A stretch of DNA of 64,000 bases from Vicinamibacterales bacterium (GCA_965216615.1 CBDCGH010000022.1:1-64000); one strand, 5' to 3'; shown: positions 10,797-59,030, counted from the first letter of the stretch. Program-made: numbers and translations. Notes: generated by a model not told the origin, from the letters alone.

Positions 10797-11025
10797 CAAA
10801 GAGCCTCCTCAACAACGAACAACCAACGACTTGCCAGATCATACTGAGCTGCAGGACCAACGGACCCGAGAACACACCAGGTTGCAACTGGATCGTCCCA
10901 CCGGGCAGCGCTTGAGAGGGTGGCGTTGTCGGAGATGAGTACCCCTACGGGACGGACAAGCGGGCCCACCCTCGGGAATCGAAACGTGACGACAACGTCG
11001 ATCCGAGACGGGTGGACGATAGCAG

Positions 11026-12018: not shown

Positions 12019-12252
12019 GGGCCTGCGAGTCCCGCAGGATCTGGACCTGCATCTGAACCTCCCTATTGACCACCATGGTCGGTAACTCTTTTCCTGCCAT
12101 CTTAACCCAGCCGAGGCCGGCAGCATGCTGTGCTGCGTCTGCGTGCCCCCGCTGCACGGGTTCGCCTGCCCTCGCAACACCGACACTCGACCGGGATGTG
12201 GCGCTCAGTTCAGAGAGCACGCAAGCGTCTTGGTTTGTATCATCTGAGGCGC

Positions 12253-44154: not shown

Positions 44155-44167
44155 ACCGGTAAGCACG

Positions 44168-44752
44168 ATGACGACGAGCGATCGACCCAACCTTCCCCAA
44201 GTCTGGGATCACCACTGGCGAGATCTGTCGGGTCGTGGTGCCGTCTTTGGCTGGCTCGCCTCGATGTTCCGCAAGGTCTTTTTGGTATCGGCCGTTCGGC
44301 ACTACACCGATCGCTTCTTCACGTCGGAGGGCGTCTTCGTCGAGACCGGCTGCGGCACGTCCGAGTCTTCGGTCGGCATACGCCGGCAGGGTCGGCGCCT
44401 CCTCGGCGTGGACTTTTCTTTCGAGGCGCTGGTTCTCGTGCGACAGCAGCGGACCTTTGATTACCTGGTCTGCGCCGACATTCGCCATCTTCCCTTTCGG
44501 GAGGATTCCATCGCCGGGATCTGGAATCTCGGTGTCATGGAGCATTTCGAGGCGTCCGAAGGTCTCGAGATCCTTCGGGAGTTTGAGCGGACTCTCCGAA
44601 GGCTGATCCTTCGGAAGGGCAATTCTCTGACAGAAGGGCAATTCTCTTCTGGCCACCGACGTTCGGCCTGTCGCGATGGGTACTCGCCCCCTTCGAATGG
44701 CTGCGCAGCCGAATTACCCGTCGCGAGTTTCGCTTCTTTCCCGACGAAGTGA
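44168..44752 (+). CDS. Class I SAM-dependent methyltransferase (C-terminus apparently disrupted)
   Basis: Motif I VFVETGCGTSESS, post-I LVCADIRHLPF, motif II IAGIWNLGVMEHF. A 15-bp perfect direct repeat (19-bp period) at 44614-44647 coincides with loss of protein-like sequence in this frame. Another frame continues protein-like to ~44896. Confidence 0.6.
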   Translation: MTTSDRPNLPQVWDHHWRDLSGRGAVFGWLASMFRKVFLVSAVRHYTDRFFTSEGVFVETGCGTSESSVGIRRQGRRLLGVDFSFEALVLVRQQRTFDYLVCADIRHLPFREDSIAGIWNLGVMEHFEASEGLEILREFERTLRRLILRKGNSLTEGQFSSGHRRSACRDGYSPPSNGCAAELPVASFASFPTK

Positions 44753-44996
44753 ACCGACTCCGCTCGAGTCGGCAGGCGCGACGCCTGGTGCGGACTGCTG
44801 CTCTCGAGCCCCTTGGCGTTGAGTTCCCGACCCGCGCCGCATTGTGCCATCTCGTCGTTGCGGCCCGCCGAACGCGACCGTCGCCACGATCGCCGTTGCC
44901 ATCGTGATCCAGTCTTGTTTTCGCTGGGCGAGCCCGATAAGGTAGGCGCCGATCTCGGCCCTGGAGGGCCCTGGCCATCGCGGGGAGCAGATACCC

Positions 44997-45752
44997 TTGA
45001 AAGTGTCAGTCGTCATTGCGGCGTACGATGAGCTCGAGAACATCACTGCGTTGACGCGCCGGCTCAATGCAGCGCTGATGTCGGTTCCCGACTGCGACCG
45101 GGAGCTGATCTTCGTCGTCGAGGGTCGGGACGGAACGCGGGAAGCGCTGGCGGATCTGGCGACCGAGATCACCGAGATTCGCATTCTCTATCGTGAGGTG
45201 CCAAGTGGCCTGGGCGACGCGTTCCGGCGCGGCTTCGGCGCGGTGGCGGAGGACGCCGATGTGGTTGTCACTCTCGATGCCGACCTCAACCACCAGCCGG
45301 AGGAGATTCCTAGGTTGCTGGCCGCTCTTTGCGATGCTGAAGCGGATGTGGTCGTCGGCTCTCGCTTCATCACCGGCGGCAAAGTCGACGGAAGCCCGCA
45401 CTGGAAGCGCGAGCTCAGCAGTGTGGCCAACCTGATGATGCGCTGGTTGTACGGGCTGCGGGTCCTCGATTCGACCTCCGGGTTTCGGCTCTATCGCGCG
45501 GCTGTGCTCCGGGAGGTCCACCATTCGAGCAACACGTTCTCTTTTCTGCCCGAAATGCTCATTCGGATCAGCGCGGCCGGTTATCGGATCATCGAGGAGC
45601 CCATTCATTTCATCTTTCGCCAGCAGGGCTCATCGAAGCTTCCGTTCTGGATGACGTCGTGGAGCTATCTGGGGCTCTTTGCCGCGCGCCTCTCGGGACG
45701 GCGACTCCGTCGCACGCGAGAATCGAGCCGCTCAGGCTTGCGCACCGTGTAG
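44997..45752 (+). CDS. GT2 polyprenyl-phosphate sugar synthase (DPM1/ArnC/Ppm1-like)
   Basis: VVIAAYDE...TLDADLNHQPEEIPRLL...VVVGSRF (DAD and DxD-type motifs of dolichyl/undecaprenyl-phosphate mannose/glucose/Ara4N-formyl transferases). ~250 aa soluble GT-A. Confidence 0.85.
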   Translation: MKVSVVIAAYDELENITALTRRLNAALMSVPDCDRELIFVVEGRDGTREALADLATEITEIRILYREVPSGLGDAFRRGFGAVAEDADVVVTLDADLNHQPEEIPRLLAALCDAEADVVVGSRFITGGKVDGSPHWKRELSSVANLMMRWLYGLRVLDSTSGFRLYRAAVLREVHHSSNTFSFLPEMLIRISAAGYRIIEEPIHFIFRQQGSSKLPFWMTSWSYLGLFAARLSGRRLRRTRESSRSGLRTV

Positions 45753-45918: not shown

Positions 45919-46335
45919 ATGACTTGCGCACACTGTCACGCGGGCGAGATGGAGCCCACCCAGGTGTCACGCACGCACGGGGGACTCGGGAGAACGGCGT
46001 ATACGGCGGCTCTGACGTGTGTGCTGATCGTGGGAGGGGGCGCCGGTTGGGTGCTCGCTCTGGTGGGTGATGGCGACCTCGACCTTCGTGCCGTCTCACT
46101 CGTGACGCTCGGGGTCCTGCTCGTCGGCACGCCGATCCTGATCATCGGCGCATTGACCTTGTTTTCCGAGAAGAAGGTGTGGCGCTGCTCGCAGTGTAAC
46201 TGCGTCTTGAGATCGAGACTAGACCCGCCACTTCGGCTCTTCGTGTACCCTGCACATCGTGCGAGCTCGAGCGCTGGCGGGCGTGTGCCTGGTCCTCGGC
46301 GCGGGTGTCGGAGGGTGGGTTGGGCAACATGTTAA
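45919..46335 (+). CDS. Hypothetical small membrane protein with flanking CxxC pairs (zinc-ribbon-like)
   Basis: MTCAHCH...(2 TM: LTCVLIVGGGAGWVLALV / LVTLGVLLVGTPILIIGALTLF)...WRCSQCNC. The 3' end overlaps the next gene in another frame, so the real stop is probably earlier. Confidence 0.3.
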   Translation: MTCAHCHAGEMEPTQVSRTHGGLGRTAYTAALTCVLIVGGGAGWVLALVGDGDLDLRAVSLVTLGVLLVGTPILIIGALTLFSEKKVWRCSQCNCVLRSRLDPPLRLFVYPAHRASSSAGGRVPGPRRGCRRVGWATC

Positions 46336-46810
46336 TGCCGCCCGCACGGTTCATCGGGAGCTCGCCACCGCGCTGCAGGGCGTCCGCCGAGCCGTGGACG
46401 AGCTACATGGGACAGTCGACACTCTGGCGGCCGCAGATGTCGTCACAGTGATCCTCGAAGGGGAATCTGCAGCCCGTCACGCCGAGGGTCGGCTGTTCCT
46501 CAGTCCGACACGCGGTAGTGTCATGGTCGCATCGAACATGCCCCCTTTGCCGACCGGTCAGACGTATCGCGTGTGGCTGCTCTTGGCCTCTGGGATCTTC
46601 AGCGGGGGCGGGGTCGGGGTCGACGAGGGCGGACGAATCTTCGCGACGATCAAGGCCCCCTCGGATACGAGCCAGCTGATCGCGGTCATCGTGACCCTAG
46701 AGCCGGAAGCGGGTGGCGAGATGACCTCGACGAACATGGTCTCTGGGATCTTTCGGGGTCGACGAGGGCGGACGTCCCGACGATCAAGTACGAGCCAAGG
46801 TCAGCCCTGA
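46259..46810 (+). CDS. Membrane protein with a periplasmic anti-sigma-K (RskA-like) C-terminal domain
   Basis: TM helix (ALAGVCLVLGAGVGGWVG), then the RskA C-domain signature (GRLFLSPTRGSVMVASNMPPLPTGQTYRVWLLLASG ... IAVIVTLEPEAGG). GTG start. No N-terminal anti-sigma domain and no ECF sigma gene adjacent. The 3' end lies within decayed tandem duplications. Confidence 0.6.
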   Translation: MRARALAGVCLVLGAGVGGWVGQHVNAARTVHRELATALQGVRRAVDELHGTVDTLAAADVVTVILEGESAARHAEGRLFLSPTRGSVMVASNMPPLPTGQTYRVWLLLASGIFSGGGVGVDEGGRIFATIKAPSDTSQLIAVIVTLEPEAGGEMTSTNMVSGIFRGRRGRTSRRSSTSQGQP

Positions 46811-46890
46811 GAGGGTGGCGAGATGACCTCGACGAACATGGTCCTCTTTGGTCGTCCCGACGAGTAAGGCAGCCCTGAGAGCGGACGAAA
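46600..46890 (+). repeat. Degenerate tandem duplications of the RskA-like gene 3' end (one ~145-bp unit plus two progressively decayed copies)
   Basis: GGGGTCGACGAGGGCGGACG recurs at ~46607 and ~46756. GGGTGGCGAGATGACCTCGACGAACATGGTC recurs at ~46713 and ~46812. TCCCGACGA and CAGCCCTGAGAG recur again near 46850-46875. Confidence 0.7.
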
Positions 46891-46994
46891 GCCTCCTCAT
46901 ACCCCGGGAAGGCCGCATCCAGGTTCAAACGCCGGAACTCCAAGTAAAACCGGCTTTGCCAAATGGTGCAGGAATTGCAATTACGTGATCTGTA

Positions 46995-47231
46995 GTGTCG
47001 GAGATTCTGGTTTTCGGGGCAGGCTTCGCAGTGCTTGCTGTGTGTTTGCTCGCACTGGCCGTGCTCGACCGTCGCAGGTTCTGGAACATCGCCCCGCCCG
47101 CCGCGCACAAGGGTCCCAAACTCACGGACAAGTCCGACGATGGACCCTCAGTGGATCGCCACAGCCGCGGTGGTCGCTACGATCGCGGCCGATACAAGCC
47201 GGCGAAGGACTGGGACCCGAGCCACCCCTAA
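46995..47231 (+). CDS. Hypothetical small membrane protein with a basic Gly/Arg/Asp-rich tail (78 aa)
   Basis: GTG start. One TM (ILVFGAGFAVLAVCLLALAVL), then HSRGGRYDRGRYKPAKDWDPSHP. No SD. It sits in a lower-GC patch. Weak evidence. Confidence 0.2.
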   Translation: MSEILVFGAGFAVLAVCLLALAVLDRRRFWNIAPPAAHKGPKLTDKSDDGPSVDRHSRGGRYDRGRYKPAKDWDPSHP

Positions 47232-47239
47232 GGGTGGCA

Positions 47240-49720
47240 CTAGAGTTCCCCGACGCCGTACCAGCCGTTCAACTGTTCGACCAGGGCCCGGATCTTGGCG
47301 CGAGATCTGCGCCGGGTAGCTTCGTCCAACCGCAGCGATTCCGTGTTGCTGTCCATGGTCAGGTCGTAGAGGTAGTCTCGGTAGTTCACAGAATCGAGAA
47401 TGTAGAAGGACCGACCGCCCTCTGAGATGATGCCGTATACGGGACCGTAGCTCGACGCCATCAAGTGATCGGACATGACATAGTCGCGTCGCTCATCGGC
47501 GCGATGAGTGAAGAGAGAGCGTCCAAACATCGGGCCGATCTCATCCGGTTTGAATCCAAGCAGTGTCTGCAGCGTTGGCGAGAGATCGGTCGTGAACGCC
47601 AGGCCGCCGGTGTCCACGCCAAGCCCGTCGACGAGGCCATCGGGAACCCGCATGATCAGCGGCACCCTGACGATCTCCGGGAAGATGGTGTACGCGTGAC
47701 CAAAGCGCCCCTCCTCACCCAGCGAGTCGCCGTGATCCGAGGTGAGAATGATGACACTGTCTCCGTAGAGGTCCTCTTTCTTGAGGTGTTCCACAAAGCG
47801 CCCGAAGCAGGTATCGATCTGGCGTAGTCGGGATGCATAGGGGGCGTAGAACGCTTCGTAGTCTGTGTCGTCGACAGCTTCGACACCGCCGCGGTTAATT
47901 GTGGCGATATGGATATTCTGCGGCTGGGTGTAGGCGAAGAAGGGGCCGTCTTGGTCGGTGCGCGCAGACAGCCTCTCTTGCAGCTCATCCAGCGATCGAC
48001 AGAGCTCGATCTCCCCGGCCTTTCGTCCCTTGTCGAGCTCGGTGACCCAGCCTTCCGTTTCGAGGATCTTGTCCAGAATCGGGTCAACGCTGATGAAGGC
48101 CTCATACCCCTGTGACCTGAGAAGGGTCTGGAGTGAGTTCATCGGTGCGAACGGTGACACGTACTGCTTGTGCGGGAGCAGCCCGCCGACCCAAATCGAT
48201 GGTTCCGACAGGCCGGTGGCGCCGTAGCGCGAGAACGCCTGTTCGAAGACCAGGCCGTCACTCGCGAAGGCGTCAATGCTCGGCGTGAACGTCACATCCG
48301 GGTTGTAGCTGCCCAGGTAGTCGCGGCGGAGGCTGTCGACCACGACGATGAAGATGTGTGGTCTGGCGGTGGCCGTGGCTGATGCGTCAGCCACGAAACG
48401 GACGTCACGAGGCGTCAGGTTGACACTCTGTGGAATGCCGGTGTAGGCCTGCAGGTACTTGAAGAGCTCCACATCCGACTCTGTGTTTGCCGCACGAGGC
48501 TGGAGCCACGATCGCAAGAGGCCGGCCGACACATCGTATCCGGTGTACCGCTCGACGACCCCCTCGACAGCCGGCGGTGCCGAGGCTCCGCGAAAGATGC
48601 CGAGGGCGCCGAGCGGGATGATGGCCGAAACGACCAGTCCCTGCAGTGTGTGCGCGTGGCCTCGAATCATCGCGTGGAACGCCGCAAAGGCGGCGACCCA
48701 GACGGCAACCATGCAGAGCCGCTGGAGCAGGAAGTTCCAGTCGATCGGTGCCAAGCTCGTCATGAGGAGCCAAGCAGACACCCCAACGAGACTGAGCCAG
48801 ACCCACGCAAACGACGTTGAGCGTTCCCCCACCGGTGTCACCGCCCCGAACACCAAGGCGAACCCATCGGAAAGGGGTTCATCTTCGTCAAGACGGTGGC
48901 GGGCGTTCAGCCCAACGAGAGACACGACAAGTGCACCGGCCAGCGTTGCCGCGGCGACGTCGGCGAAGCCGCCAGTGAACGCGAGCCCCGCGAAGACGGT
49001 GCCGTGAATCACGCCGGCCAGAAACACTATCGACAGGAAGGCAAGCAGCAGCGCTTCTACTCGAGCCGGCTGCCGACTCAGCGCGACGATCCCACGTAGC
49101 AGGAGGAGACATGTACAGACGCCCAGAAACAGGATGAGGTGCGCGGAGAAGCTCCACGCGGCGGCGACACCCAGCTCAGCGGCGGTCAGGCTCGTAGCGA
49201 TCCCGGGCCGGGCGATAGCGACCGCGGTCGAAATGACCCAGCTGAACATCGCCGCCATGCCTGCCGAGATGAGCAGGCGGCTCTCGCCCGCGGGAGTCTT
49301 TGACCATCGACCACGTCCACGCGTGGCGACGAGATCGATCCCCGCGACCCAAAGAAGCGGCACCAATGCGACTTGACTCCAGATGAAGGCGCTCAGGTTG
49401 TTCTCCAGGTGCGGAAGAACGGGACGGATCAGCAGCAGCGCGCCACCGGCGACCATGGCCACCCTGAAGCCACGCTGCAGGAGCCGGGTAGTCGATCGGG
49501 CGTTCGCGTGCCGAACGCTGACATCCATGAGCCACGCGACTGGCAAGAAGAGCCAGGCGTGTGCGTGTTCGAAAAACACCAGCGCTGGCACGAGCTCGCT
49601 CTCGAGCAGCTGTACGTAGGTGAACGGCATGAAGTACAGGAGGCAATACACGCAGGTCAGACCGAAGTACCCAACAGCGATGATCCGCGCAAGCAACGTT
49701 TGCCAGGTCTTGATGGTCAT
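47240..49720 (-). CDS. Membrane-anchored sulfatase/alkaline-phosphatase-superfamily transferase (LTA-synthase / phosphoethanolamine- or phosphoglycerol-transferase-like)
   Basis: N-terminal ~430 aa with ~10-12 TM helices. C-terminal periplasmic domain with IFIVVVDSLRRDY (metal-binding/nucleophile region) and LTSDHGDSLGEEG motifs. Its ATG overlaps the upstream TPR gene stop (ATGA). Confidence 0.8.
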   Translation of the reverse strand: MTIKTWQTLLARIIAVGYFGLTCVYCLLYFMPFTYVQLLESELVPALVFFEHAHAWLFLPVAWLMDVSVRHANARSTTRLLQRGFRVAMVAGGALLLIRPVLPHLENNLSAFIWSQVALVPLLWVAGIDLVATRGRGRWSKTPAGESRLLISAGMAAMFSWVISTAVAIARPGIATSLTAAELGVAAAWSFSAHLILFLGVCTCLLLLRGIVALSRQPARVEALLLAFLSIVFLAGVIHGTVFAGLAFTGGFADVAAATLAGALVVSLVGLNARHRLDEDEPLSDGFALVFGAVTPVGERSTSFAWVWLSLVGVSAWLLMTSLAPIDWNFLLQRLCMVAVWVAAFAAFHAMIRGHAHTLQGLVVSAIIPLGALGIFRGASAPPAVEGVVERYTGYDVSAGLLRSWLQPRAANTESDVELFKYLQAYTGIPQSVNLTPRDVRFVADASATATARPHIFIVVVDSLRRDYLGSYNPDVTFTPSIDAFASDGLVFEQAFSRYGATGLSEPSIWVGGLLPHKQYVSPFAPMNSLQTLLRSQGYEAFISVDPILDKILETEGWVTELDKGRKAGEIELCRSLDELQERLSARTDQDGPFFAYTQPQNIHIATINRGGVEAVDDTDYEAFYAPYASRLRQIDTCFGRFVEHLKKEDLYGDSVIILTSDHGDSLGEEGRFGHAYTIFPEIVRVPLIMRVPDGLVDGLGVDTGGLAFTTDLSPTLQTLLGFKPDEIGPMFGRSLFTHRADERRDYVMSDHLMASSYGPVYGIISEGGRSFYILDSVNYRDYLYDLTMDSNTESLRLDEATRRRSRAKIRALVEQLNGWYGVGEL

Positions 49721-50814
49721 CAGGTCGCCTGACGGGCACGGTCGCGCGCCCTCTTCGCGTCCGCACGTTTTGGCTCGAGCTCCAGGACCCGGTCGTATTG
49801 GCCGACGGCATCGGCAAAACGTCCTTGCGCCTCAGCGATCTGACCGAGCAACAAGTAGGCGTCTCCGTACTGCGGGCTCTGAATCAGGACTTGCTCGGCA
49901 CGCTCCCGTGCCTCGTCGAAACGCTCGAGTCGTGACAGGGCCATGGCGAGGACCAGCAGGGCGTCGACGTGATCGGGGTTCCTCCTCACTTCCTCGTGTG
50001 CGAGCGCGCGGGCGGTCTCGAAGTCACCCGCCCAGAGTGTGAGGCGCGCGAGGCCGATGGCCATCCCTGAGTAATCGGGCGAGGTGGCCAGTCCGTCCGC
50101 GTAAACGTCCCGAGCCTCCGCATGTCGGCCTTGGCGTTCCAGGGAGAGACCTAATGCGAACTGCGCGTCGGGGAGCTCTGGTGTTTCGCTCAACAGACGC
50201 CGGAGTGTGGTTTCGGCCTCCACCGACCGACCGCTACGGAGGAGGAGCCGGGCGCTTCCAATGTGGAAGTCGAGATACTCGGGTGCCATATCTGCGCCCC
50301 GGGCGAGTACGGCACTGGCCTCCTCTAGGTCTCCGATCCGTTCGAGCATCAGTCCCGCTGCTAGCACGTGGTCGGGGTTCGAGGGCTCGACCTCCATACA
50401 GCGACGATAGCTGTCCAGCGCCTTCCTTGGCTCCCCCGCAGCGACGTAGGTGTCGCCGATCGTCGGACAGGCTCCCGACCCAACCGGTGCCCGATCCATG
50501 TAGAGCTCCATCATCGAGGCAGCGGCCGCGTGGTTTCCGTTGGCGAGATGTGCCTCGGCCAAGCTCCACATATAGATGTGGTTGTTGGGGTACACCTCGA
50601 GAAGCGCCGTAAGTTTGTCAACCGCTTCCCCGCCCCGGTCCTCTTCGATGAGTGCGTCGGCTTCGGCCGCGAGCCGTCTGGATTCAGCAAGTGACAAGCC
50701 ACCGGGGCCACTGTCCGGCGCGCCCTCGGTGACAGGGAGACCGCCCGCGACGGTCCACACGTAGGCCAGCAGCACGACACCCGGGGATGCAATGCGAATC
50801 AGCGCTGACGCCAT
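49720..50814 (-). CDS. TPR-repeat protein with N-terminal signal anchor
   Basis: MASALIRIASPGVVLLAYVWTVAGG signal/TM, then ~8 TPR units (e.g. AEAHLANGNHAAAASMMELYMDRAP, AQFALGLSLERQGRHAEARDVYADGL). It starts 2 nt after the upstream stop. Confidence 0.78.
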   Translation of the reverse strand: MASALIRIASPGVVLLAYVWTVAGGLPVTEGAPDSGPGGLSLAESRRLAAEADALIEEDRGGEAVDKLTALLEVYPNNHIYMWSLAEAHLANGNHAAAASMMELYMDRAPVGSGACPTIGDTYVAAGEPRKALDSYRRCMEVEPSNPDHVLAAGLMLERIGDLEEASAVLARGADMAPEYLDFHIGSARLLLRSGRSVEAETTLRRLLSETPELPDAQFALGLSLERQGRHAEARDVYADGLATSPDYSGMAIGLARLTLWAGDFETARALAHEEVRRNPDHVDALLVLAMALSRLERFDEARERAEQVLIQSPQYGDAYLLLGQIAEAQGRFADAVGQYDRVLELEPKRADAKRARDRARQAT

Positions 50815-50816
50815 GT

Positions 50817-52079
50817 CTAGAATCGAACTCCGAGGCCACTGGAGACGGAGAATTGCCAGAGGTCGGATAATCCCGCTCGCCCTTCGCGACTGGCGCTCCC
50901 AGAGACCCACAGATCGAGGGTGCCGACCGGAACCGACCATTCAGCTGCAAACGTGTCCGAGCTCAGGTCTGCAATGTCGGTCAGATTTCGTACCTCATCG
51001 CGATAGGCTCCGCGCCCGTAACGCAAGCCGTAGTAACCGACGCCATCCGACCGGTACCGCCGAGCGATCGCGTGCACCGACGTCGATGGCCCGAGGGTGT
51101 TGGGCGTGACGAAGACGCGACTCGTATACATCCAGTTCCCTCGGTACTTGGTGAGCGACCCGACATAGATCGTCACGGCACTCGTGAATTGCATCCGGCG
51201 GAAGCCTCCCGATGCCTCGTAGCCGCCTCCCAAACTCTGATAGAGATCGAACCCGACGCGGTACGAGGGAAAGAGGATGGATTCCGGTGCGAACGCGCCG
51301 CTGACGTACGCGTAGGTTCCCGGTCGGAAGCGAGGGTACATGTCGACTTCGACCTGGTGGTCGGTGTACCCGAACCGCTCGGCCCGGTAGACGCGGCCGA
51401 TCACCGATCCCACCTTCGTCTGACGGGTGAGACCGTAGCGCGTTTCCCGCCAGGCCCCTCGTCCGTCACTGAACGAATCGAAGGAATACGCGACATCGCC
51501 GCGCCAGAACCGTCGCGTGTCTCGAAGCGATCGGCGAAGTCCACGTGCCGTCTCATTTTCGGGATCGATGCGGACGGCCGCATTGACGGCATCCAGGGCC
51601 TCGTCTTCGCGCGACAGATTCCAAAGAGCCCGCGCGCGTGTAATCAGCAGGGCCGCGTTGTCCGGGTGCTTCGTGAGGCCGACAACCGAGAGGGACTCGG
51701 CCTTCGCGTGCTGTCCCGACCACAATTCGAGGTTCGCCATCGCCGGCAAAGCGTCCCCATGCGTGGGATTGCCGTCCAGCACGAACTGAAGGTGCCCGCG
51801 CGCCTCATCATAGGACCCGTCCCACGACAGTACCGTGCCCAATAATGTACGCGCGTCCGTATCGCTCGGGTGGCGCTCGATGTGTGCCCTCAGAAGGCGA
51901 ATCGCCTCCTTTCGATCACCCGACCTGGCGCTGAGTCGGGCCGAGGCCACGGGGTCGTCTGGAGTTGTTTGAGCCCAGACGGGCCCGGCGGTGAGCAACA
52001 GCAAACCCGCCAGAATAGCGCCGCAGCGTGCAATGGTCATCCCCTTCAGGGAATCGGCCATGAGTGGCACCATCTTCAT
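50817..52079 (-). CDS. Outer-membrane protein: N-terminal TPR repeats plus C-terminal YaiO-like beta-barrel (PgaA/BcsC-type exporter architecture)
   Basis: Signal peptide, ~170 aa of TPR, then ~230 aa of alternating-hydrophobic beta-strand sequence ending in ...GLGVRF (terminal aromatic, OMP signature). Its ATG overlaps the stop of the upstream GT2 synthase (ATGA). Confidence 0.7.
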   Translation of the reverse strand: MKMVPLMADSLKGMTIARCGAILAGLLLLTAGPVWAQTTPDDPVASARLSARSGDRKEAIRLLRAHIERHPSDTDARTLLGTVLSWDGSYDEARGHLQFVLDGNPTHGDALPAMANLELWSGQHAKAESLSVVGLTKHPDNAALLITRARALWNLSREDEALDAVNAAVRIDPENETARGLRRSLRDTRRFWRGDVAYSFDSFSDGRGAWRETRYGLTRQTKVGSVIGRVYRAERFGYTDHQVEVDMYPRFRPGTYAYVSGAFAPESILFPSYRVGFDLYQSLGGGYEASGGFRRMQFTSAVTIYVGSLTKYRGNWMYTSRVFVTPNTLGPSTSVHAIARRYRSDGVGYYGLRYGRGAYRDEVRNLTDIADLSSDTFAAEWSVPVGTLDLWVSGSASREGRAGLSDLWQFSVSSGLGVRF

Positions 52080-53515
52080 GCCCCTGTTGGCCGCGAAACC
52101 GTCGTCGACCCAAATCCGCGTCGCGTCATGACGCCCCAACCAGTCTTCCCGCGTAGCGCGTCGACCAGGCCTTTGGTCCGCCAGATCGCGGTGAGCTGCC
52201 GGTAGCCAAAACCCTCCAGCACCGATGCCGCCAGCAGCTTCGCCACGTCCTTCGGAGCTGGGTACCGCCGTATGGTCATGTCTTCGAGCAGGACCGATCC
52301 AACCGAAAGTAGGATGCCGAAAATGACAGAGACCAAGAAGAACAGGAGGGCCACCTCGACCGACACGATTCCGAGGCCCAACCCAATCAGCGTCAGTAGG
52401 TATCCGAGGAGCTCGACGACCGGGCCGAGCATCTCGAACATGACGAAGTACGGCATCGCGAACATTCCGACGACGCCATAGGCTGGGTTCAGCAACATCG
52501 ACTTGTGCGCAGACAGGCTCTCAACGGTTCCCCGCTGCCAGCGATTCCGCTGACGGTGCAGGATTTTGAGCGTGTCAGGCACCTCGGTCCAGCAGACCGG
52601 ATCCGGAACGAACACGATGCGATATGGTCTGCGCTCGCGACGTGCGCGATGGTGCAGGCGGAGGACGAGCTCCATATCTTCACCGACCGTCGATCGCGAG
52701 AAGCCGCCGACCTCGACGACCGCCTCGCGCTTGAACAGCCCGAACGCGCCGGAGATGAGCAGCAGTGCGTTCATGAAGCTAAACGCCACTCGTCCACCCA
52801 GGAACGCCCGGAGGTATTCAACGGTCTGGAAGAGGGTGAGCGCCCGCCTCGGGGTCGACACTTCCACCACGCGACCGTGGCGCACACGGCACCCGTTGAC
52901 GACTCGGACAATCCCGCCGGTCGCCAGTGTGCTCTCGTCTTCCAGAAACGGACGCACCACCGCGAAAAGCGATCCCGGCTCGAGGAGCGAGTCGGCGTCG
53001 ACCGCCGCGATCAATGTTGATCGCGCGACCCGCAGGCCGGCGTTCAGCGCGTCGGACTTTCCGCCGTTCTCCTTGTCAACGACGATCAGCGGGATCGGAT
53101 CGCGAGACTCGTACACGGCCCGTATCGGTTCACTGGCGAGTGTCTCAGAGGGTGTCCGACTTGATCGATACAGCCGGAACTCCTCAATGAGCGTTGCCAG
53201 TGTCTCGTCCGTCGAGCCATCATTCACAACGATTACCGTCAGCGCCGGGTACTCGAGACTGAGGAACGACCGTACGCTCTCTCGAATCGAGGTCGCTTCG
53301 TTGTAGGCGGGCGCGATCACCGAGACACTCGGGAGTAGCGAGGACTGCATCAACGCGTCTCGTTCCGTTCGACCGAGGCGTCCCCGATCGCGTCGCAGCG
53401 CAAAGTACCCGAGCGCCATCAGCACGAAGTAGATGAGGTTGATGCTTGCGACGTACAGCACAATTCCGAGTTCGACTCGGATGAACACCCACTGGAAGAC
53501 GGTCTGCCACTCCAT
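52076..53515 (-). CDS. Processive GT2 polysaccharide synthase (PgaC/IcaA/NodC/cellulose-synthase-like, membrane-embedded)
   Basis: N-terminal TM pair, then GT-A core with DAD (VVNDGSTDET), DxD (AVDADS), TED-like (GEDMEL) and QRNRWQRG (QxxRW) motifs, then C-terminal TM helices. Its ATG at 53515 overlaps the TAA of the upstream gene by 1 nt. Confidence 0.85.
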   Translation of the reverse strand: MEWQTVFQWVFIRVELGIVLYVASINLIYFVLMALGYFALRRDRGRLGRTERDALMQSSLLPSVSVIAPAYNEATSIRESVRSFLSLEYPALTVIVVNDGSTDETLATLIEEFRLYRSSRTPSETLASEPIRAVYESRDPIPLIVVDKENGGKSDALNAGLRVARSTLIAAVDADSLLEPGSLFAVVRPFLEDESTLATGGIVRVVNGCRVRHGRVVEVSTPRRALTLFQTVEYLRAFLGGRVAFSFMNALLLISGAFGLFKREAVVEVGGFSRSTVGEDMELVLRLHHRARRERRPYRIVFVPDPVCWTEVPDTLKILHRQRNRWQRGTVESLSAHKSMLLNPAYGVVGMFAMPYFVMFEMLGPVVELLGYLLTLIGLGLGIVSVEVALLFFLVSVIFGILLSVGSVLLEDMTIRRYPAPKDVAKLLAASVLEGFGYRQLTAIWRTKGLVDALRGKTGWGVMTRRGFGSTTVSRPTGA

Positions 53516-54705
53516 TAGATCGTCGCTAGCTGTAGCCGTCCGATACGCGCCTTCTCCGCAACTTCGGCGGCAATTTGGTTCCGGTCGGCGTCGTCCTGGT
53601 TGGCGGCCCGCTCGAGCGCGACAACGCCGTCGGTCCCGAGCTGCGCGAGTGCCACGGCGGCGGACAGCTGAAGGCGGGGATCTGGTGCCGCGAGGCATTC
53701 TTCGAGCCTTGCCGCCAATGCCCGGACCTTCATTCGGCCCACGACGGACGCGGCGGCGGCGCGCACGTCGTCGGCCTCATCGGACAGCCCTCGCTCGAGG
53801 GACGACACCAGCTCTCCGAGACCATCGACTTGTGGCAGGGTGGCCACGGCGAGCGCTCGCACACGCGGGTCAGGATGCTCATGAAGGGGGGTGACAGCGT
53901 CGGGTGTCAATCTGACCTGCCAGAGCTTCACGAACTGGAGCACGGCCACCAACGCATCCGGTTCGTGCGACGTCAGCGCGATCGGGATGGCTCGCCTCTC
54001 GAGAACCGCCGCCGACCCTTCCATCGCCTGGCCGAGAATGGCTCGGCTCCAAGGCGATAGCTGAGCCGCGTACTCCAACACGTGCTCCAGGTCGTGCGGG
54101 TGCCCGTGGCGGACCAGCGCGTGAGCGGCGGCGAGCTGAACGTCCACGTCATCGTCGTCGAGCGCTCGTCGCAGCGCTCGGCGGGTCCGCAACGTCGGGA
54201 TGAAGCCGATCGCTCGTACGGCGGCCAGGCGTCGACGAACGACGCCCGAACGCACCCCCTGCAACCAGCGATTCGCAATGCCAAGCTGCTCGGCCACGTG
54301 GGCCAGGCGCTCGCGCGGCTTGCCATCGACGAGCGTGAGCACCTCGAAGATGGTCTCCCGGAAGATTCGCGGATAGCGTCGGTACTGCCCGACAACCGTG
54401 CTCATCCCGGCTTGGCCGAGCGCGTACTCGGTCAGTGCCGCGCGAATGGACTGTGTTTCCCGGTCGGCCCGCTGACGAGCGAGATGTGCCCGCCACTTGC
54501 TTCCCATGAGGTGCAGTGAGATCGCCCCAGCTGCCAGCAGATGGGTCAAGCCGAAGGCGACGCCTAGCCGGAGGGGATACGACGAGGAGATCTCGGAGAG
54601 GACGCCGGACTCGAGCCACAGCGTGACGCCCACGACGGAGGCGGCCGCGGCGGTGGCCTGGAGCCAGATCGTGATCCGAGCGCGCCGTGAAAGATGGACA
54701 CTCAC
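53515..54705 (-). CDS. Membrane-anchored HEAT/PBS-lyase-repeat protein
   Basis: Two or three N-terminal TM helices, then repeated alpha-helical HEAT-like units (e.g. VRRRLAAVRAIGFIPT, VQLAAAHALVRHGHP, PRVRALAVATL, VRAAAASVVGRM, LQLSAAVALAQLG). Confidence 0.65.
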   Translation of the reverse strand: MSVHLSRRARITIWLQATAAAASVVGVTLWLESGVLSEISSSYPLRLGVAFGLTHLLAAGAISLHLMGSKWRAHLARQRADRETQSIRAALTEYALGQAGMSTVVGQYRRYPRIFRETIFEVLTLVDGKPRERLAHVAEQLGIANRWLQGVRSGVVRRRLAAVRAIGFIPTLRTRRALRRALDDDDVDVQLAAAHALVRHGHPHDLEHVLEYAAQLSPWSRAILGQAMEGSAAVLERRAIPIALTSHEPDALVAVLQFVKLWQVRLTPDAVTPLHEHPDPRVRALAVATLPQVDGLGELVSSLERGLSDEADDVRAAAASVVGRMKVRALAARLEECLAAPDPRLQLSAAVALAQLGTDGVVALERAANQDDADRNQIAAEVAEKARIGRLQLATI

Positions 54706-54714
54706 GGACTCGGC

Positions 54715-56241
54715 TCAGGCCGCAACAGGTCGGTGATCGTCGTCGAGGATGCGCCGCACCCTCATCGCGACCTCAATTGGGTTGAAGGGCTTCGACACAT
54801 AGTCTGCGGCGCCTAGGGCAAAGCCATGCAGCACGTCGGATTCCTGGCTGCGGGCCGTGACCATGACTACCGGAATCGACCGGGTGGTGCTGCTGCTCTT
54901 CATATGCGACAGCACCTCGAACCCGGTCATCCCGGGCATGTTGACGTCGAGGATGACAACGGCCGGCTGACGCCGTTGAATCTGGGCCAGGGCCTCGCCT
55001 CCGGACATGACGACGTGACATTCGAACTCGTAGCTCGTGAGCGTGTGCTCGAGGAGCGCCGTCACGGTCGGGTCGTCATCGGCGATGATGACCAGGCGAT
55101 TGTCGGAGGTGAGTCCGGTCGGGTTACGCCGGTCGGCAGACAACAGCCGGTATGCTCTCAGCAGCAGCTCATCAGGCGTTACTGGACAGACCACGACGTC
55201 ATCCCCATGGGCAAGCCCCGTGCTCAGCGACACGGTGTCGGGGGGACCAACGTACAGCGTGGGTTTGCCGTGGTCACGTGGCGCCTGGTCATGCTCGTCG
55301 GACCGGTCCGTGTGGACCCTCTGGAGCACGAGATCAAAATGGCTCAACCGCTCGACATCCATCTCCGTCGGGTCGGCTGATTCCACGACTCGGGCGAACG
55401 CCCCGGCCGCTTCGAATGTGTGTGCCAGCCGGCTCGCGTCGTTGTGATCGAAGCCCACGGTGGCAATCCGCGAACAGGCCAGCGCGCCCTTCACTTGTTC
55501 GACCACATCGGGAGTGGGAGGCCGGGCATCAGCCTCGAACGACCCGTGATCGTGGCGCGTTGGAGGCTCCGCCTCGAACAGGCCCCTGATGGCCCGCAGA
55601 TTGGACGTGAGTCGCTGCGGCTCGTCCGGAAAGGCCGCGATGTCTGTTTCTATCTGGCGGGCGAGCTCGGTGACGTTCGGGTACCCGAACGTCCCCCCGC
55701 GGCCGACCCAGCGATGGGCGATATGTTCGGCCTCGGTCCGATTGAACGAAGCTGGGTCGTCGAGCATCGACAAGAGCGCATCAGTTTCCCGCAACCCATC
55801 CGACACGAATTCGTCCGCAAGCTGGTCAGCCAGGGACGACGGCTCGGCCTCGGCGGTCGCGGGATCCAGCCTGCCGCTGTCCTGGAGAATCCGGATGACA
55901 CGCGCGGAGAGCTCGTCCGGATCGAACGGCTTTCCAATGACGTCGGCCACATCGAGCGCTTGGAGCTCCGCGACATCAGCGACGCTGGTCTTGGCTGTAA
56001 AGAAGGCGATCAGAGACTGCCGGGCGGTGGGATTCTTGCGAAGCTCTTCGAGTACGGCTCGGCCTGGCATGTCGGGCATGAGCTGGTCGAGCAGGATCAG
56101 GTCGAAGGTGTTGGCCCGTGCCAGCGCGACACCCTCGCGTCCGTCGCGAGCGGTTGTCACCTCGAAACCGTCGTTGTGTTCCAAGGACGTCGCCGCGAGA
56201 AGGCGGATCGCCGGATCGTCGTCGATGATCAGGATCCTCAT
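54715..56241 (-). CDS. Multi-domain response regulator: REC - Hpt-like - unknown - REC
   Basis: N-terminal receiver (MRILIIDDDPA...LILLDQLMPDMPG...K), internal Hpt-like motif (AEHIAHRWVGRGGTFGYPNVTELARQIE), C-terminal receiver (LVIIADDDPT...VVILDVNMPGMTG...K). Confidence 0.8.
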   Translation of the reverse strand: MRILIIDDDPAIRLLAATSLEHNDGFEVTTARDGREGVALARANTFDLILLDQLMPDMPGRAVLEELRKNPTARQSLIAFFTAKTSVADVAELQALDVADVIGKPFDPDELSARVIRILQDSGRLDPATAEAEPSSLADQLADEFVSDGLRETDALLSMLDDPASFNRTEAEHIAHRWVGRGGTFGYPNVTELARQIETDIAAFPDEPQRLTSNLRAIRGLFEAEPPTRHDHGSFEADARPPTPDVVEQVKGALACSRIATVGFDHNDASRLAHTFEAAGAFARVVESADPTEMDVERLSHFDLVLQRVHTDRSDEHDQAPRDHGKPTLYVGPPDTVSLSTGLAHGDDVVVCPVTPDELLLRAYRLLSADRRNPTGLTSDNRLVIIADDDPTVTALLEHTLTSYEFECHVVMSGGEALAQIQRRQPAVVILDVNMPGMTGFEVLSHMKSSSTTRSIPVVMVTARSQESDVLHGFALGAADYVSKPFNPIEVAMRVRRILDDDHRPVAA

Positions 56242-57743
56242 GATGCGATCTCCGTTGGCACGCGCCGAGTCGGAAGGGTGTGCGGGGACGGGGCCTGCCG
56301 GACTTCCTCCATTACCCCACTCATGAGGCCGATGGCGAAGGTCGACCCCACCCCTTCCTCACTGGTTGCGGAGAGCCGGAAGCCCATGGCATTGCAGAGC
56401 AGACGAGAGATGGCCAGCCCGAGCCCGGTACCGCCGAATCGCCGGGTTGTCGTGTCTTCTGCCTGCTCAAACGGGTTAAAGATCGCCTCGAGCCGCTCGT
56501 GTGCGATACCGATGCCGGTGTCGCTGACCTCGATCTGAGTGGGTACGTTTCCGTCCGTCGTCACGCTGACAGCGACCAAGCCCCGTTCCGTGAACTTGAC
56601 GGCGTTTCCGACGAGGTTGACGAGCACCTGCTTCAACTTGTCCCGGTCGGCGCTGAGCAGTGCTGTGTCGGGGGGAACCATGGCCCGGAGCGTGAGACCG
56701 TCAGCATGCGCGTTGCCCTCGATTTCCGACAGCACCTCTTCCACCAGCGGTCCCAGGCTTACGTCCTCCACTTGCACGTCGAGTTTGCCTGCTTCGATCT
56801 TGGACAGATCCAGGATGTCGTTGATCAGCGTCAACAGTTGGACGCCGTTGGAGCGGATGCGCTGGAGGAAGTCGAGTTCCTTCGCGGGCAGGCGCTGGCT
56901 TCGGTTCTTCAGCAGAACGCTGGTGAACCCGATCACCGAGTTGAGCGGTGTTCGCAGCTCGTGGCTCATGGTGGCCAGAAAACGGCTCTTGGCTCGGTTG
57001 GCTGCCTCGGCTTCGTCCTTCGCCCGCTTGAGTTGTTGCTCGGCCTTTTTGATGTCCGTGACGTCACGCGCCACCGCGTAGACCTCGTTGTCGCCCGGCG
57101 TGGCCGTCCAGGAGAGCGTTCGATACGCCCCGTCTCGACAGCGATACCTGTTCTCGAAGAACAGCGCCGGTCGTCCCTCACCGACCGCGGCCAGCTCCTT
57201 CATCGTGGCCTCGCAGTCATCCGGATGGACGAAGTCCAGGAACGACTGCGACATCAGCTCTTCGCGGGTATAGCCCAGGCTTCGCTCGAACGCCGGGTTG
57301 ATCAGCTTGAAGTGACCATCGAGCGATGCCGTGCAGAACATGTCCATCGACAGGTCGAAGAACTTCTTGAGTTGACGATCGGACTGGCGCGAGTGCCCAA
57401 CCTCATGCATCACCCCTTGAATCGACCTCGGCGCGTCGCCGCTGAACACGCAGGTCAGCGTGCCGGTCACGTCGATCCCGGAGCCATTCTTGGGCGTCAA
57501 GGTCAGGTCGGTAACGATGGACCGTCCCGCCAATAGCCGATAGAAGAGAATCGAGAACTGAGGCCGGCTCACCGGGTGGATCGTGTCGTTGAGTGTGAGT
57601 CGCGACGCTTCTGACGTGGTGTACCCGAGTGTCGAACACCATGTCTCGTTGACGAGCGACAGCCGTCCACCGATCTCCGCCTCGAACATCAAGACGCGGG
57701 ATTCCTCAAAGAACGAGCTCAGCTGGGTTGGTCGCTCAGTCAC
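56238..57743 (-). CDS. Cytoplasmic PAS-PAS sensor histidine kinase
   Basis: Two PAS-like domains. HisKA H-box MSHELRTPLNSVIGF. HATPase_c N/G boxes (LVNLVGNAVKF, DTGIGI, GGTGLGL). No TM segments. Confidence 0.88.
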   Translation of the reverse strand: MTERPTQLSSFFEESRVLMFEAEIGGRLSLVNETWCSTLGYTTSEASRLTLNDTIHPVSRPQFSILFYRLLAGRSIVTDLTLTPKNGSGIDVTGTLTCVFSGDAPRSIQGVMHEVGHSRQSDRQLKKFFDLSMDMFCTASLDGHFKLINPAFERSLGYTREELMSQSFLDFVHPDDCEATMKELAAVGEGRPALFFENRYRCRDGAYRTLSWTATPGDNEVYAVARDVTDIKKAEQQLKRAKDEAEAANRAKSRFLATMSHELRTPLNSVIGFTSVLLKNRSQRLPAKELDFLQRIRSNGVQLLTLINDILDLSKIEAGKLDVQVEDVSLGPLVEEVLSEIEGNAHADGLTLRAMVPPDTALLSADRDKLKQVLVNLVGNAVKFTERGLVAVSVTTDGNVPTQIEVSDTGIGIAHERLEAIFNPFEQAEDTTTRRFGGTGLGLAISRLLCNAMGFRLSATSEEGVGSTFAIGLMSGVMEEVRQAPSPHTLPTRRVPTEIAS

Positions 57744-58116
57744 AGGCCTCGGTCACACCCAACAGACGGTCAATCGCCTGAAGCAAGATCGCCTCGTCTG
57801 TGACAGGCTTGGTGACGTAATCGTCGAAGCCGCCGGCGAGAAACCGCTCGCGGTCCCCTCGCATCGCATGGGCCGTGAGCGCGATGACCGGCAACCTGCG
57901 CAGGCCCGGATCCTCGCGCAGCTGGTTCAGCACCTCCTGACCGTCCATTCCCGGCAGCGAGATGTCCATCAAGATGAGGTCGGGCGCTGAGGCCATGATG
58001 CCCTCGAGCGCCGACGTTCCATCCTCGTACTCGCACACGTCGAACTGCTCGTCGAGGATGGCCTGGAGCAGTAGTCGGTTATCGGCGTTGTCTTCGACGA
58101 TGGCAATTCGTTTCAT
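57736..58116 (-). CDS. Single-domain CheY-like response regulator
   Basis: IAIVEDNADNRLLL...DLILMDISLPGMDG...VIALTAHA...TKP. 126 aa. Confidence 0.88.
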   Translation of the reverse strand: MKRIAIVEDNADNRLLLQAILDEQFDVCEYEDGTSALEGIMASAPDLILMDISLPGMDGQEVLNQLREDPGLRRLPVIALTAHAMRGDRERFLAGGFDDYVTKPVTDEAILLQAIDRLLGVTEACD

Positions 58117-58496
58117 CGGTGCTCCTGCAGACTGATACGGACCCGAGCGAGCGCGTCCGATGCCCGGGCAAATTCGTCGAGCAGCTGAGGGCGCAGCGCC
58201 AAGAAGGCGTCCAGCCTTCCGCGCGCTGCCGAAGCTTCCAGGGCCATCGCGAGCTGGTAGAGCCGTGTCGCCCCGAGATTGCCGGCACTCGTCTTCAGCG
58301 AGTGGGCGGCCGCCTCGGCTTCGCGCAGTTCGTCGGCGTGGTCGCTGGCGCGAATGGTTTCGACCCGTTCGGCCGTGTGACTATTGAACAGGTCGATCAT
58401 CTTGCGAACCAGCTGGCGGCCGCCGAGTTGCTGGAGACGATCGAGCCTGGATCGCTCGACGACTTCTGTGGAATCCTCGGAGAATGTTGTAATCAT
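58113..58496 (-). CDS. Hpt (histidine phosphotransfer) domain protein
   Basis: AHSLKTSAGNLGATRL conserved His motif. ~127 aa. Its stop overlaps the CheY start (ATGA). The start may be the TTG at 58526. Confidence 0.75.
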   Translation of the reverse strand: MITTFSEDSTEVVERSRLDRLQQLGGRQLVRKMIDLFNSHTAERVETIRASDHADELREAEAAAHSLKTSAGNLGATRLYQLAMALEASAARGRLDAFLALRPQLLDEFARASDALARVRISLQEHR

Positions 58497-58618
58497 CGCG
58501 CCCAGAACTGTGCCTAATGGCGCCAAGAGTCATACCAGGGGCATACGGCACCAAGTCCGCATTCTGGGCCCGGATAATGGGAGTGTCCGGGCTCATCGGC
58601 GCATAGCCCACGACGGGA

Positions 58619-59030
58619 TCGCGGCGCGCAGCGACGGAAAATGTAAGAGTTGGGACAGAATCGTAAGGCGTGCGATCGTGTTCGGACGGCGCGGTCGGCC
58701 ACGCTCTTACAGCCAGGCATTCGGGCGAGTCGACGTGGCCACCTCCTCGTCAAAGCTATCGGTTTTCGGTGCCGAATATACTCAATGCATCGTGCCGGCA
58801 GAGGTTGTTGAATGAGACAGGGGCTGCACCATCCGCATCATCGGGCGCGCATGGTCGCGGCGCGCAGCGACGGAAAATGTAAGAGTTGGGACAGAATCGT
58901 AAGGCGTGCTGCGCTCCCACGCTCTTACAGCCAGGCATTCGGGCGAGTCGACGTGGTCCTCGTCAAAGCTATCGGTTTTCGGTGCCGAATATACTCAATG
59001 ATCGTGCCGGCAGAGGTTGTTGAATGAGAC
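58619..59030 (+). promoter_or_regulatory. Tandemly duplicated promoter/5'UTR (unit 1 at 58619-58818, unit 2 at 58855-59030), each carrying a hairpin and a TATACT -10-like box and ending in the ATGAGAC start
   Basis: Two ~90% identical direct repeats (200 and 176 bp) separated by 36 bp. Each contains cGTAAGGCGTG...CACGCTCTTACag inverted repeats, GGTGCCGAATATACTCAATG and GAGGTTGTTGAATGAGAC. Only the second ATG (59024) opens the long FAD-oxidoreductase ORF. Confidence 0.7.

Follow-up and report, generated by a model that had tools for sequence, protein, structure and literature searches.

The window analysed here, a stretch of 64,000 nucleotides from a Vicinamibacterales bacterium (GCA_965216615.1 CBDCGH010000022.1:1-64000; positions count from its first letter), carries five closely packed minus-strand genes that very probably encode a synthase-dependent exopolysaccharide (EPS) export system. 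In the direction of transcription they specify an inner-membrane HEAT-repeat protein, a glycosyltransferase of family 2 (GT2), an outer-membrane protein that joins tetratricopeptide repeats (TPRs) to a YaiO-type beta-barrel, a second TPR protein (TPR2) and an inner-membrane enzyme of the alkaline phosphatase (AlkP) superfamily. On balance we favour a role for the AlkP enzyme in decorating the polymer with a phospho-group.

Gene organization of the operon

Within this cassette the HEAT and GT2 genes overlap by 1 nt, the GT2 and YaiO genes overlap by 4 nt (ATGA), the YaiO and TPR2 genes are separated by 2 nt, and the TPR2 and AlkP genes again overlap by 1 nt (TGATG). A first-pass annotation of the window had listed the same five genes, and their positions and domains agree with the open reading frames (ORFs) and with matches to Pfam and NCBIfam (Table 1). 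Its account of the junctions was also correct except for the last one, which it gave as a second ATGA. These ORFs are real genes rather than chance reading frames, because homologues exist for all five proteins and because an independent gene caller found the same five genes on a near-identical 703-kb metagenome contig (L001).

The HEAT gene had been taken for the leader of the operon, which proved wrong. A gap of 9 nt separates the HEAT gene from the end of an upstream gene for a protein with two receiver (REC) domains and an intervening region resembling a histidine phosphotransfer (Hpt) domain. This gene is coupled in turn to genes for a PAS-domain histidine kinase, a single-domain REC protein and an Hpt protein, with overlaps of 4 nt (Hpt/REC), 8 nt (REC/PAS kinase) and 4 nt (kinase/REC-Hpt-REC). 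Because the four signalling genes are translationally coupled, the operon comprises nine genes (47240-58526) with a phosphorelay at its head. A scan of positions 46500-59200 for promoters and terminators returned no more sites than occur in shuffled sequence.

The domain scan of the nine operon proteins found no PilZ, GGDEF, EAL, CE4-deacetylase or BcsB domain, and the family profiles of the cassette proteins match none of PgaD, PgaB, BcsB and BcsE of Escherichia coli. Both results agree with the earlier statement that PgaB, PgaD, BcsB and PilZ components are missing from this locus. None of the NCBIfam equivalog models fits any of the five cassette proteins, and the source annotations of their homologues are generic ('glycosyltransferase family 2 protein', 'YaiO family outer membrane protein'). 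Full-text literature searches did not find a published description of the cassette.

Predicted functions of the cassette proteins

The best NCBIfam match of the GT2 protein is PgaC_IcaA (TIGR03937; E = 2.7e-40, 138.6 bits). Since this score does not reach the equivalog cut-off of 422.3, the protein is not a PgaC equivalog. Three Pfam families (Glyco_tranf_2_3, Glyco_trans_2_3 and Chitin_synth_2) match above their cut-offs, and the CelA model scores 63.5 bits against a cut-off of 699. Among E. coli proteins, the GT2 family profile gives its best score to PgaC (139 bits), followed by YaiP (68 bits); BcsA scores 36 bits, and NfrB is not matched. YaiP is also found by BLASTP (27% identity, E = 5e-15), and the best relative with a solved structure is BcsA (E = 6e-10). 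The residues N71-E72, D99-G-S, D173xD175, S-G-A-F, E278-D279, C-W-T-E and R321-Q-R-x-R-W326 are kept in 49 orthologues, and the last of these motifs lies within RQRNRWQRG in the window protein. Hydrophobic helices at residues 16-34 and 359-377/388-406 flank the catalytic domain, which is accompanied by an amphipathic segment at 243-261. These features place the protein in the membrane-embedded synthase type, nearest to PgaC, and the family to which it belongs predicts that it is processive. This bears out the first-pass assignment to a PgaC/BcsA-like processive GT2 with a QxxRW motif, in that the full processive motif set, the C-terminal transmembrane (TM) bundle and the ranking of profile scores do not fit a non-processive or N-glycosyl/ceramide-type transferase. 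With PgaC/IcaA as the nearest family, our best guess for the product is a polymer of the N-acetylglucosamine (GlcNAc) type.

The HEAT protein has hydrophobic helices at residues 11-29 and 49-67 with Arg/Lys-rich flanks, and this two-helix pattern is present in 20 of 21 orthologues recovered through synteny and a purpose-built profile. Because the flanks of both N-terminal helices are basic, the HEAT repeats should be cytoplasmic. In the loci examined, which represent the two lineages described below, the HEAT gene always lies immediately upstream of the GT2 gene. A two-helix partner encoded beside a synthase recalls PgaD and IcaD; the HEAT family profile detects no sequence similarity to PgaD. 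An output-less REC protein adjoins the HEAT gene in both lineages, and the window adds the Hpt, REC and PAS kinase genes upstream. This adjacency tentatively suggests that REC phosphorylation could control the synthase through the HEAT domain.

The TPR/YaiO protein scores far above the cut-offs of both models for its barrel (PF19413, 143.5 bits against 23.9; TIGR04390, 139.3 bits against 32). It ends in GVRF, with the final F invariant in 44 homologues, and as modelled it combines a closed beta-barrel fold, a signal peptide and a C-terminal aromatic residue, as expected of a YaiO-family protein. The PGA_TPR_OMP model matches over the TPRs only (29.9 bits; cut-off 366.65), and the profile of the YaiO protein does not match the barrels of PgaA, NfrA and BcsC, of which BcsC and NfrA are reached through their TPRs only. 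The barrel is of the 14-stranded YaiO type and belongs to neither the PgaA nor the BcsC barrel family. The first-pass description of N-terminal TPRs and a YaiO-like barrel (rather than a soluble domain) that ends in F holds, and the general layout matches the PgaA/BcsC exporter architecture named there, although the barrel differs from those of PgaA and BcsC in family and size. With this fold, the protein may serve as an export porin. CymA and OmpG pass cyclodextrins and maltodextrins, and by analogy a single glycan chain could fit the YaiO barrel.

TPR2, which the first-pass annotation had placed correctly downstream of the YaiO gene, has a family-conserved core at about residues 60-220 and two cysteines (C116 and C139) that are kept in 66 orthologues. 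Among the 76 loci whose upstream sequence is long enough, 65 have the TPR2 gene in the upstream flank of the AlkP gene, and in nearly all of these the two genes are direct neighbours. One Acidobacteriota cassette encodes an additional 979-aa TPR-containing protein between the GT2 and TPR/YaiO genes (L002:4791-7730).

The AlkP enzyme contains the motifs VVVDSLRRDY and TSDHGDSLGE, and its description as an 826-aa membrane enzyme of this superfamily with DSLRRD and SDHGDS motifs stands. Its structure model (pLDDT 89.8, pTM 0.88) consists of about 11 TM helices (residues 1-380), three linker helices and an alpha/beta catalytic domain (approximately 450-826). The Arg/Lys-rich loops at 69-85, 134-148, 213-221 and 352-358 alternate such that, by the positive-inside rule, the N-terminus is predicted to be cytoplasmic and the catalytic domain periplasmic. 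Residues 1-440 match no Pfam family. The only invariant residues in the membrane domain are D327-W328, which belong to a DWNFLLQK motif at the predicted periplasmic end of a helix.

The positions D462, T502, H604, D662, H663, E669 and H675 are invariant in all 40 family sequences, which have only 30-65% identity to the window protein. In ungapped alignments to three sulfatases, T502 occupies the position of the formylglycine Cys. The sulfatase CxPxR signature is nevertheless absent, because Thr502 is followed by G-L-S-E, with no Pro at +2 and no Arg at +4. In an alignment to LtaS-like enzymes, T502 falls on their Thr, D462 is opposite Glu and D662-H663 is opposite Asp-His. One gapped alignment had suggested S505 as the nucleophile; this candidate was rejected because the position is Ala in 10 of the 40 sequences and because the ungapped alignments place T502 on the formylglycine position. 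Given the invariant Thr, the missing CxPxR and the retained metal ligands, we infer that this is a phosphoryl-transfer enzyme rather than a sulfatase.

Its scores against the MCR/EptA models (15-25 bits) and the LtaS model (18.7 bits) are all far under the cut-offs, the profile search gives no match to E. coli BcsG, and its catalytic domain resembles S1 sulfatases and PbgA in fold more closely than it does BcsG or LtaS. The analogy to BcsG and lipoteichoic acid (LTA) synthases drawn in the first-pass annotation agrees with the Thr nucleophile and metal ligands, but not with these family scores or with the fold. The enzyme is not a member of the BcsG, LtaS or EptA families, and by analogy it may resemble them in its action.

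Conservation of the cassette in two lineages

The closest genome match of the 826-aa AlkP protein is in a Vicinamibacterales metagenome-assembled genome (62% identity), and relatives were detected in 390 genomes by a pattern scan that covered one genome per species. Locus context was examined for the best 80 of these, with annotation by phmmer and purpose-built profiles. Almost all of the 80 are Acidobacteriota (Vicinamibacterales, Blastocatellia, Bryobacterales, Terriglobia and Holophagae), with a few Planctomycetota and Myxococcota, and they include the cultured carriers Holophaga foetida DSM 6591 and Bryobacterales F-183. At 35 of the 49 Acidobacteriota loci in which the AlkP gene has at least 7 kb of sequence on either side, the HEAT, GT2, TPR/YaiO and TPR2 genes lie beside it. 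A likely orthologue of the REC-Hpt-REC protein, judged by a score cut-off that we set, is present in 21 of those 35. The AlkP gene occurs alone at nine of the 49 loci, and those of the Pyrinomonadaceae/Blastocatellia type adjoin kinase and REC genes.

Gene order varies among the Acidobacteriota loci, with the REC-HEAT-GT2 block found upstream, downstream or in divergent orientation. Most loci keep the TPR/YaiO-TPR2-AlkP block and the HEAT-GT2 pair intact, and a few have the YaiO gene downstream of the AlkP gene. Independent contigs, with genes called and labelled by Pfam, agree with this picture. That the association survives rearrangement is good evidence that the cassette genes work together. 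One locus (L088) retains the REC-Hpt-REC, HEAT, GT2 and TPR/YaiO genes without an AlkP gene. The AlkP module is therefore an accessory, as expected of a modifying enzyme.

The AlkP family also occurs apart from the cassette and is thus not exclusive to it. At six loci of the Pyrinomonadaceae/Blastocatellia type (L025, L026, L053, L055, L077 and L080, at about 9800-12600 in each), a lone paralogue with about 11 TM helices lies downstream of a histidine kinase gene and a response-regulator-like gene, and the surrounding sequence has no GT2, HEAT, YaiO or TPR2 gene. Another paralogue (L003) stands beside a prepilin peptidase gene, again without the cassette.

A distant YaiO homologue led to a variant on a contig of 29% GC, which encodes, in this order, a REC protein (122 aa), a TM-HEAT-like protein, a GT2 (347 bits to the window GT2), an AlkP protein of 810 aa and a TPR/YaiO protein. 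The 810-aa enzyme combines an AlkP domain with five TM helices and with TPRs at its C-terminus, and it has matches to LtaS (E = 2.4e-13) and to phosphoglycerol transferase I (E = 1.2e-11). We place this variant in Flavobacteriia because the 90%-identity cluster of its GT2 includes Polaribacter glomeratus. A metagenome scan found at least 574 relatives of this GT2 subfamily. At the 32 Flavobacteriia-type loci where at least 5.5 kb of sequence extends to either side of the GT2 gene, a TM-HEAT gene is next to the GT2 gene without exception (32/32), a TPR/YaiO gene is present at 30, and a single-REC gene lies beside the GT2 gene at 29, in most cases immediately before the TM-HEAT gene. A separate LtaS-like AlkP gene occurs at 18 of these loci, and the AlkP domain is fused to the GT2 at two more.

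Five contigs among 80 loci carry such GT2-AlkP fusions as single ORFs of about 1150-1270 aa, which combine the GT2, extra TM helices and an LtaS-like Sulfatase-family domain (Table 1). The locus counts, the fusions and the L088 arrangement together define a core of REC, TM-HEAT, GT2 and TPR/YaiO genes, to which AlkP is a frequent and physically coupled accessory. This accessory is supplied by different AlkP branches in the Acidobacteriota and Flavobacteriia lineages.

Several other features were observed in and around the operon. The near-identical contig has about 750 extra bases between the REC-Hpt-REC and HEAT genes (L001:8051-8811, corresponding to window positions of about 54705-54715) that are absent from the window. 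At its left edge this insertion repeats the first 24 or so HEAT codons, and it contains a transposase-like ORF fragment. Further indels distinguish the two sequences, including one of about 236 bp just upstream of the Hpt gene. On the opposite strand, the operon adjoins a set of plus-strand genes (42040-45752) for a 704-aa membrane protein with a PMT_2 (GT-C) domain, a methyltransferase and a 251-aa soluble-type GT2. Other genomes do not keep this set, which is typical of lipid-linked periplasmic glycosylation, together with the cassette, and the gene calls on the near-identical contig divide the 704-aa ORF into two genes of 300 and 399 aa. A protein with an RskA-type anti-sigma-factor C-terminal domain is encoded directly downstream of the operon, also on the plus strand (46259-46810). 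A sulfatase with TPRs (P0054) was considered as a cassette member and rejected, its context being an unrelated TonB-receptor locus.

Table 1. Genes of the nine-gene operon (window coordinates) and ORFs with fused GT2 and AlkP domains (contig coordinates)
Feature	Location	Strand	Domain matches and remarks
Hpt phosphotransfer protein, 137 aa	58113..58526	-	PF01627 Hpt, E = 2.8e-9; first gene of the co-directional block
Single-domain response regulator (REC only), 126 aa	57736..58116	-	PF00072, E = 1.2e-26
Cytoplasmic PAS-PAS histidine kinase, 501 aa	56238..57743	-	PAS_3/PAS/PAS_4; HisKA, E = 1.5e-20; HATPase_c, E = 8e-25
REC-(Hpt-like)-REC protein without output domain, 508 aa	54715..56241	-	Two Response_reg stretches, E = 1.2e-52; weak Hpt match at residues 154-217
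Inner-membrane HEAT-repeat protein, 396 aa	53515..54705	-	PF13646 HEAT_2, E = 1.1e-17, residues 274-354
PgaC-like GT2, predicted processive synthase and translocase, 479 aa	52076..53515	-	PF13641 Glyco_tranf_2_3, E = 3.4e-26
TPR and YaiO outer-membrane protein, 420 aa	50817..52079	-	PF19413, E = 8.6e-42; Sec signal peptide, about five TPR hairpins, 14-stranded barrel
Second TPR protein (TPR2), periplasmic, with N-terminal signal or anchor, 364 aa	49720..50814	-	TPR_16, E = 2e-38, and related families
AlkP-superfamily inner-membrane enzyme, 826 aa	47240..49720	-	PF00884 Sulfatase, E = 5.7e-25, above the cut-off
GT2-AlkP fusion ORF	L097:4593-8399		Apparently with C-terminal TPRs as well
GT2-AlkP fusion ORF	L106:8971-12594		
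GT2-AlkP fusion ORF	L120:8971-12582		
GT2-AlkP fusion ORF	L151:8944-12543		
GT2-AlkP fusion ORF	L168:8965-12417		

Proposed mechanism and alternatives

In the model that we propose, a phosphorelay rather than cyclic di-GMP (c-di-GMP) would signal to the output-less REC protein, with which the HEAT gene co-occurs, and this protein would act on its HEAT partner. The two-helix HEAT membrane protein, with a topology like that of PgaD and IcaD, would be the partner of the synthase and may receive the regulatory input through its HEAT domain. The PgaC-like GT2 would polymerise a nucleotide-sugar and thread the chain through its own TM channel. On the periplasmic side, the Thr-dependent AlkP enzyme would move a phospholipid headgroup, either phosphoglycerol or phosphoethanolamine, onto the nascent chain, much as BcsG acts on cellulose and OpgB/OpgE on periplasmic glucans. 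Its active-site residues, its periplasmic orientation and its genetic coupling to the synthase, which extends to GT2 fusions, are consistent with such a transfer. The two TPR proteins could then guide the chain to the 14-stranded YaiO-family porin and so across the outer membrane. The first-pass annotation had likewise suggested a non-canonical synthase-dependent EPS system that decorates its polymer with a phospho-substituent. Synteny, the LtaS-like counterpart in Flavobacteriia, the five GT2-AlkP fusions and the invariant Thr support this suggestion, and the chemistry would be that of a headgroup transfer.

Several points weigh against this model. The roles of the cassette proteins are read from genes and predicted models. 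Known EPS porins have 16-18 strands, and a 14-stranded barrel is smaller. The score of the GT2 is so far below the PgaC equivalog cut-off that family membership does not fix the sugar. The HEAT family is very divergent, such that a sequence search gave only five relatives, and the HEAT-REC link is drawn from gene adjacency. Membrane-anchored AlkP members move phospholipid headgroups to lipopolysaccharide, osmoregulated periplasmic glucans (OPGs), LTA and cellulose, and all of the known headgroup transferases of this kind have 4-5 TM helices (bioRxiv 10.64898/2026.09.23.753746). The predicted anchor of about 11 TM helices is unlike any of these. Finally, a phosphodiesterase, that is, a hydrolase, would need the same AlkP active-site residues.

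This last point leads to a first alternative, in which the rest of the model is unchanged and the AlkP enzyme is either a periplasmic phosphodiesterase that trims or releases the polymer or a non-catalytic scaffold, similar to PbgA/YejM, that binds lipid or polymer and links the synthase to the lipid status of the envelope. We consider it unlikely. That the Thr and all metal ligands are invariant across such divergent sequences speaks for catalysis. A lipid donor is suggested by the large membrane domain and by the Flavobacteriia counterpart of the LtaS/OpgB type. All of these observations are still compatible with a hydrolase.

A second alternative is a teichoic-acid-like system, in which the GT2 makes a glycolipid or short glycan primer, the AlkP enzyme is an LtaS-type polymerase that builds polyglycerol-phosphate from phosphatidylglycerol, and the product goes to the outer membrane. 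The Flavobacteriia-type AlkP enzyme is indeed closest to LtaS and phosphoglycerol transferase I, the Thr nucleophile and metal site are of the LtaS type, and the GT2-AlkP fusions would fit sequential action on a lipid-linked acceptor equally well. However, the GT2 has the full processive signature (RQRxRW, ED and the C-terminal TM bundle) and groups with PgaC, BcsA and chitin synthases rather than with monoglycosyl-lipid synthases. In addition, the AlkP gene is absent from about one-third of otherwise complete cassettes, a pattern easier to reconcile with an accessory modifier than with the main polymerase, and TPR scaffolds with a porin are hallmarks of polysaccharide export. This alternative therefore seems to us quite improbable.

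The least probable alternative is a divergent pga operon for poly-beta-1,6-GlcNAc (PNAG), with a PgaC orthologue, a short PgaA and lineage-specific extra genes: it would account for PgaC_IcaA and PgaC being the top NCBIfam and E. coli matches of the GT2 and for a TPR-plus-barrel layout that resembles PgaA, but not for the GT2 score of less than the equivalog cut-off, the lack of a PgaB deacetylase and of PgaD, the restriction of the PgaA match to the TPRs, the 14-stranded YaiO-family barrel, or an AlkP gene that is syntenic in most loci and GT2-fused in five contigs and is hence no bystander.

Weighed as a whole, the evidence tips modestly toward the model of an uncharacterised synthase-dependent EPS machine with phosphorelay control and phospho-decoration. 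The locus is best read as sharing the logic of Pga and Bcs while belonging to neither, that is, as a known synthase-dependent plan whose parts form a new set and whose control input also appears to be new. It is a more speculative step, and one that we regard as doubtful at present, to propose a distinct and widespread EPS class in which a phosphorelay-HEAT switch, in place of c-di-GMP, controls a charged, 'teichoic-like' polymer that is decorated with phosphoglycerol or phosphoethanolamine and made by diderm bacteria of soil and sea, and in which the AlkP enzyme with about 11 TM helices founds a new family of headgroup transferases.

Relation to known systems and significance

With PgaABCD/IcaADBC the cassette shares its nearest GT2 family, a synthase with an adjacent two-helix partner, and an outer-membrane protein with periplasmic TPRs and a C-terminal barrel. 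It differs in that the GT2 is far from equivalog status, a PgaB-type deacetylase/hydrolase is missing, the partner has a cytoplasmic HEAT domain of about 330 residues and no similarity to PgaD, and the barrel is of the 14-stranded YaiO family rather than that of PgaA. REC, Hpt and kinase genes also take the place of a c-di-GMP component, and an AlkP-family enzyme is added.

The type II cellulose system with BcsG likewise combines a processive GT2, a membrane-anchored periplasmic AlkP enzyme that decorates the chain from phospholipid, as is proposed for the cassette, and a TPR-barrel exporter. However, the cassette enzyme has a Thr nucleophile where BcsG has Ser278 and an anchor of about 11 rather than 4-5 TM helices. 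BcsB, PilZ, BcsE and BcsF are all lacking, and the GT2 is closer to PgaC than to BcsA. OpgH/OpgB/OpgE and LtaS offer the parallel of a GT2 polymer synthase working with AlkP-family phosphoglycerol or phosphoethanolamine transferases fed by membrane phospholipids, and the Flavobacteriia-type cassette enzyme matches LtaS and phosphoglycerol transferase I directly. In contrast, OPGs remain periplasmic and need no TPR porin, the Acidobacteriota AlkP enzyme belongs to another branch that is sulfatase/PbgA-like by fold, and no OpgH model is among the NCBIfam matches listed for the GT2 at E <= 0.01.

Two further E. coli systems bear comparison. According to annotation, NfrB-NfrA-YbcH is a similarly compact combination of a GT2, an outer-membrane TPR-barrel protein and a periplasmic auxiliary protein, but NfrB is activated by c-di-GMP and is not matched by the GT2 profile, and NfrA is matched through its TPRs and not through its barrel. 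The yaiS-yaiP-yaiX-yaiO cluster (NC_000913.3 380069-384616, L089) consists of co-directional genes for a deacetylase, a GT2 and an acyltransferase and ends in the founding YaiO barrel. Its YaiO protein lacks a TPR domain, HEAT, REC and AlkP genes are missing from the cluster, and IS2 interrupts yaiX. Neither the annotation nor a literature search gave a function for this cluster, which looks like a decayed glycan-export operon. The position of yaiO at the end of a block with deacetylase, GT2 and acyltransferase genes supports the view that YaiO barrels are generally linked to the export of glycans. Since the GT2 profile ranks YaiP directly behind PgaC among E. coli proteins, the pairing of a YaiO barrel with a GT2 recurs.

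Few groups of bacteria are as abundant in soil as the Acidobacteriota, whose matrix polymers are thought to be relevant to soil aggregation, desiccation survival and carbon retention. To our knowledge, very few of their EPS pathways have been described. About 390 species-level genomes carry the cassette or its AlkP marker, a variant occurs in marine Flavobacteriia such as Polaribacter, and the existence of cultured carriers makes the model directly testable. If the model is correct, then this system would join cellulose, PNAG, alginate, Pel and Nfr as another synthase-dependent secretion system, and it would be the second case, after phosphoethanolamine cellulose, of an EPS that receives a phospho-decoration during synthesis. 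It would also assign a function to the YaiO barrel family, for which the sources searched record none, and it may provide a c-di-GMP-independent switch for a synthase.

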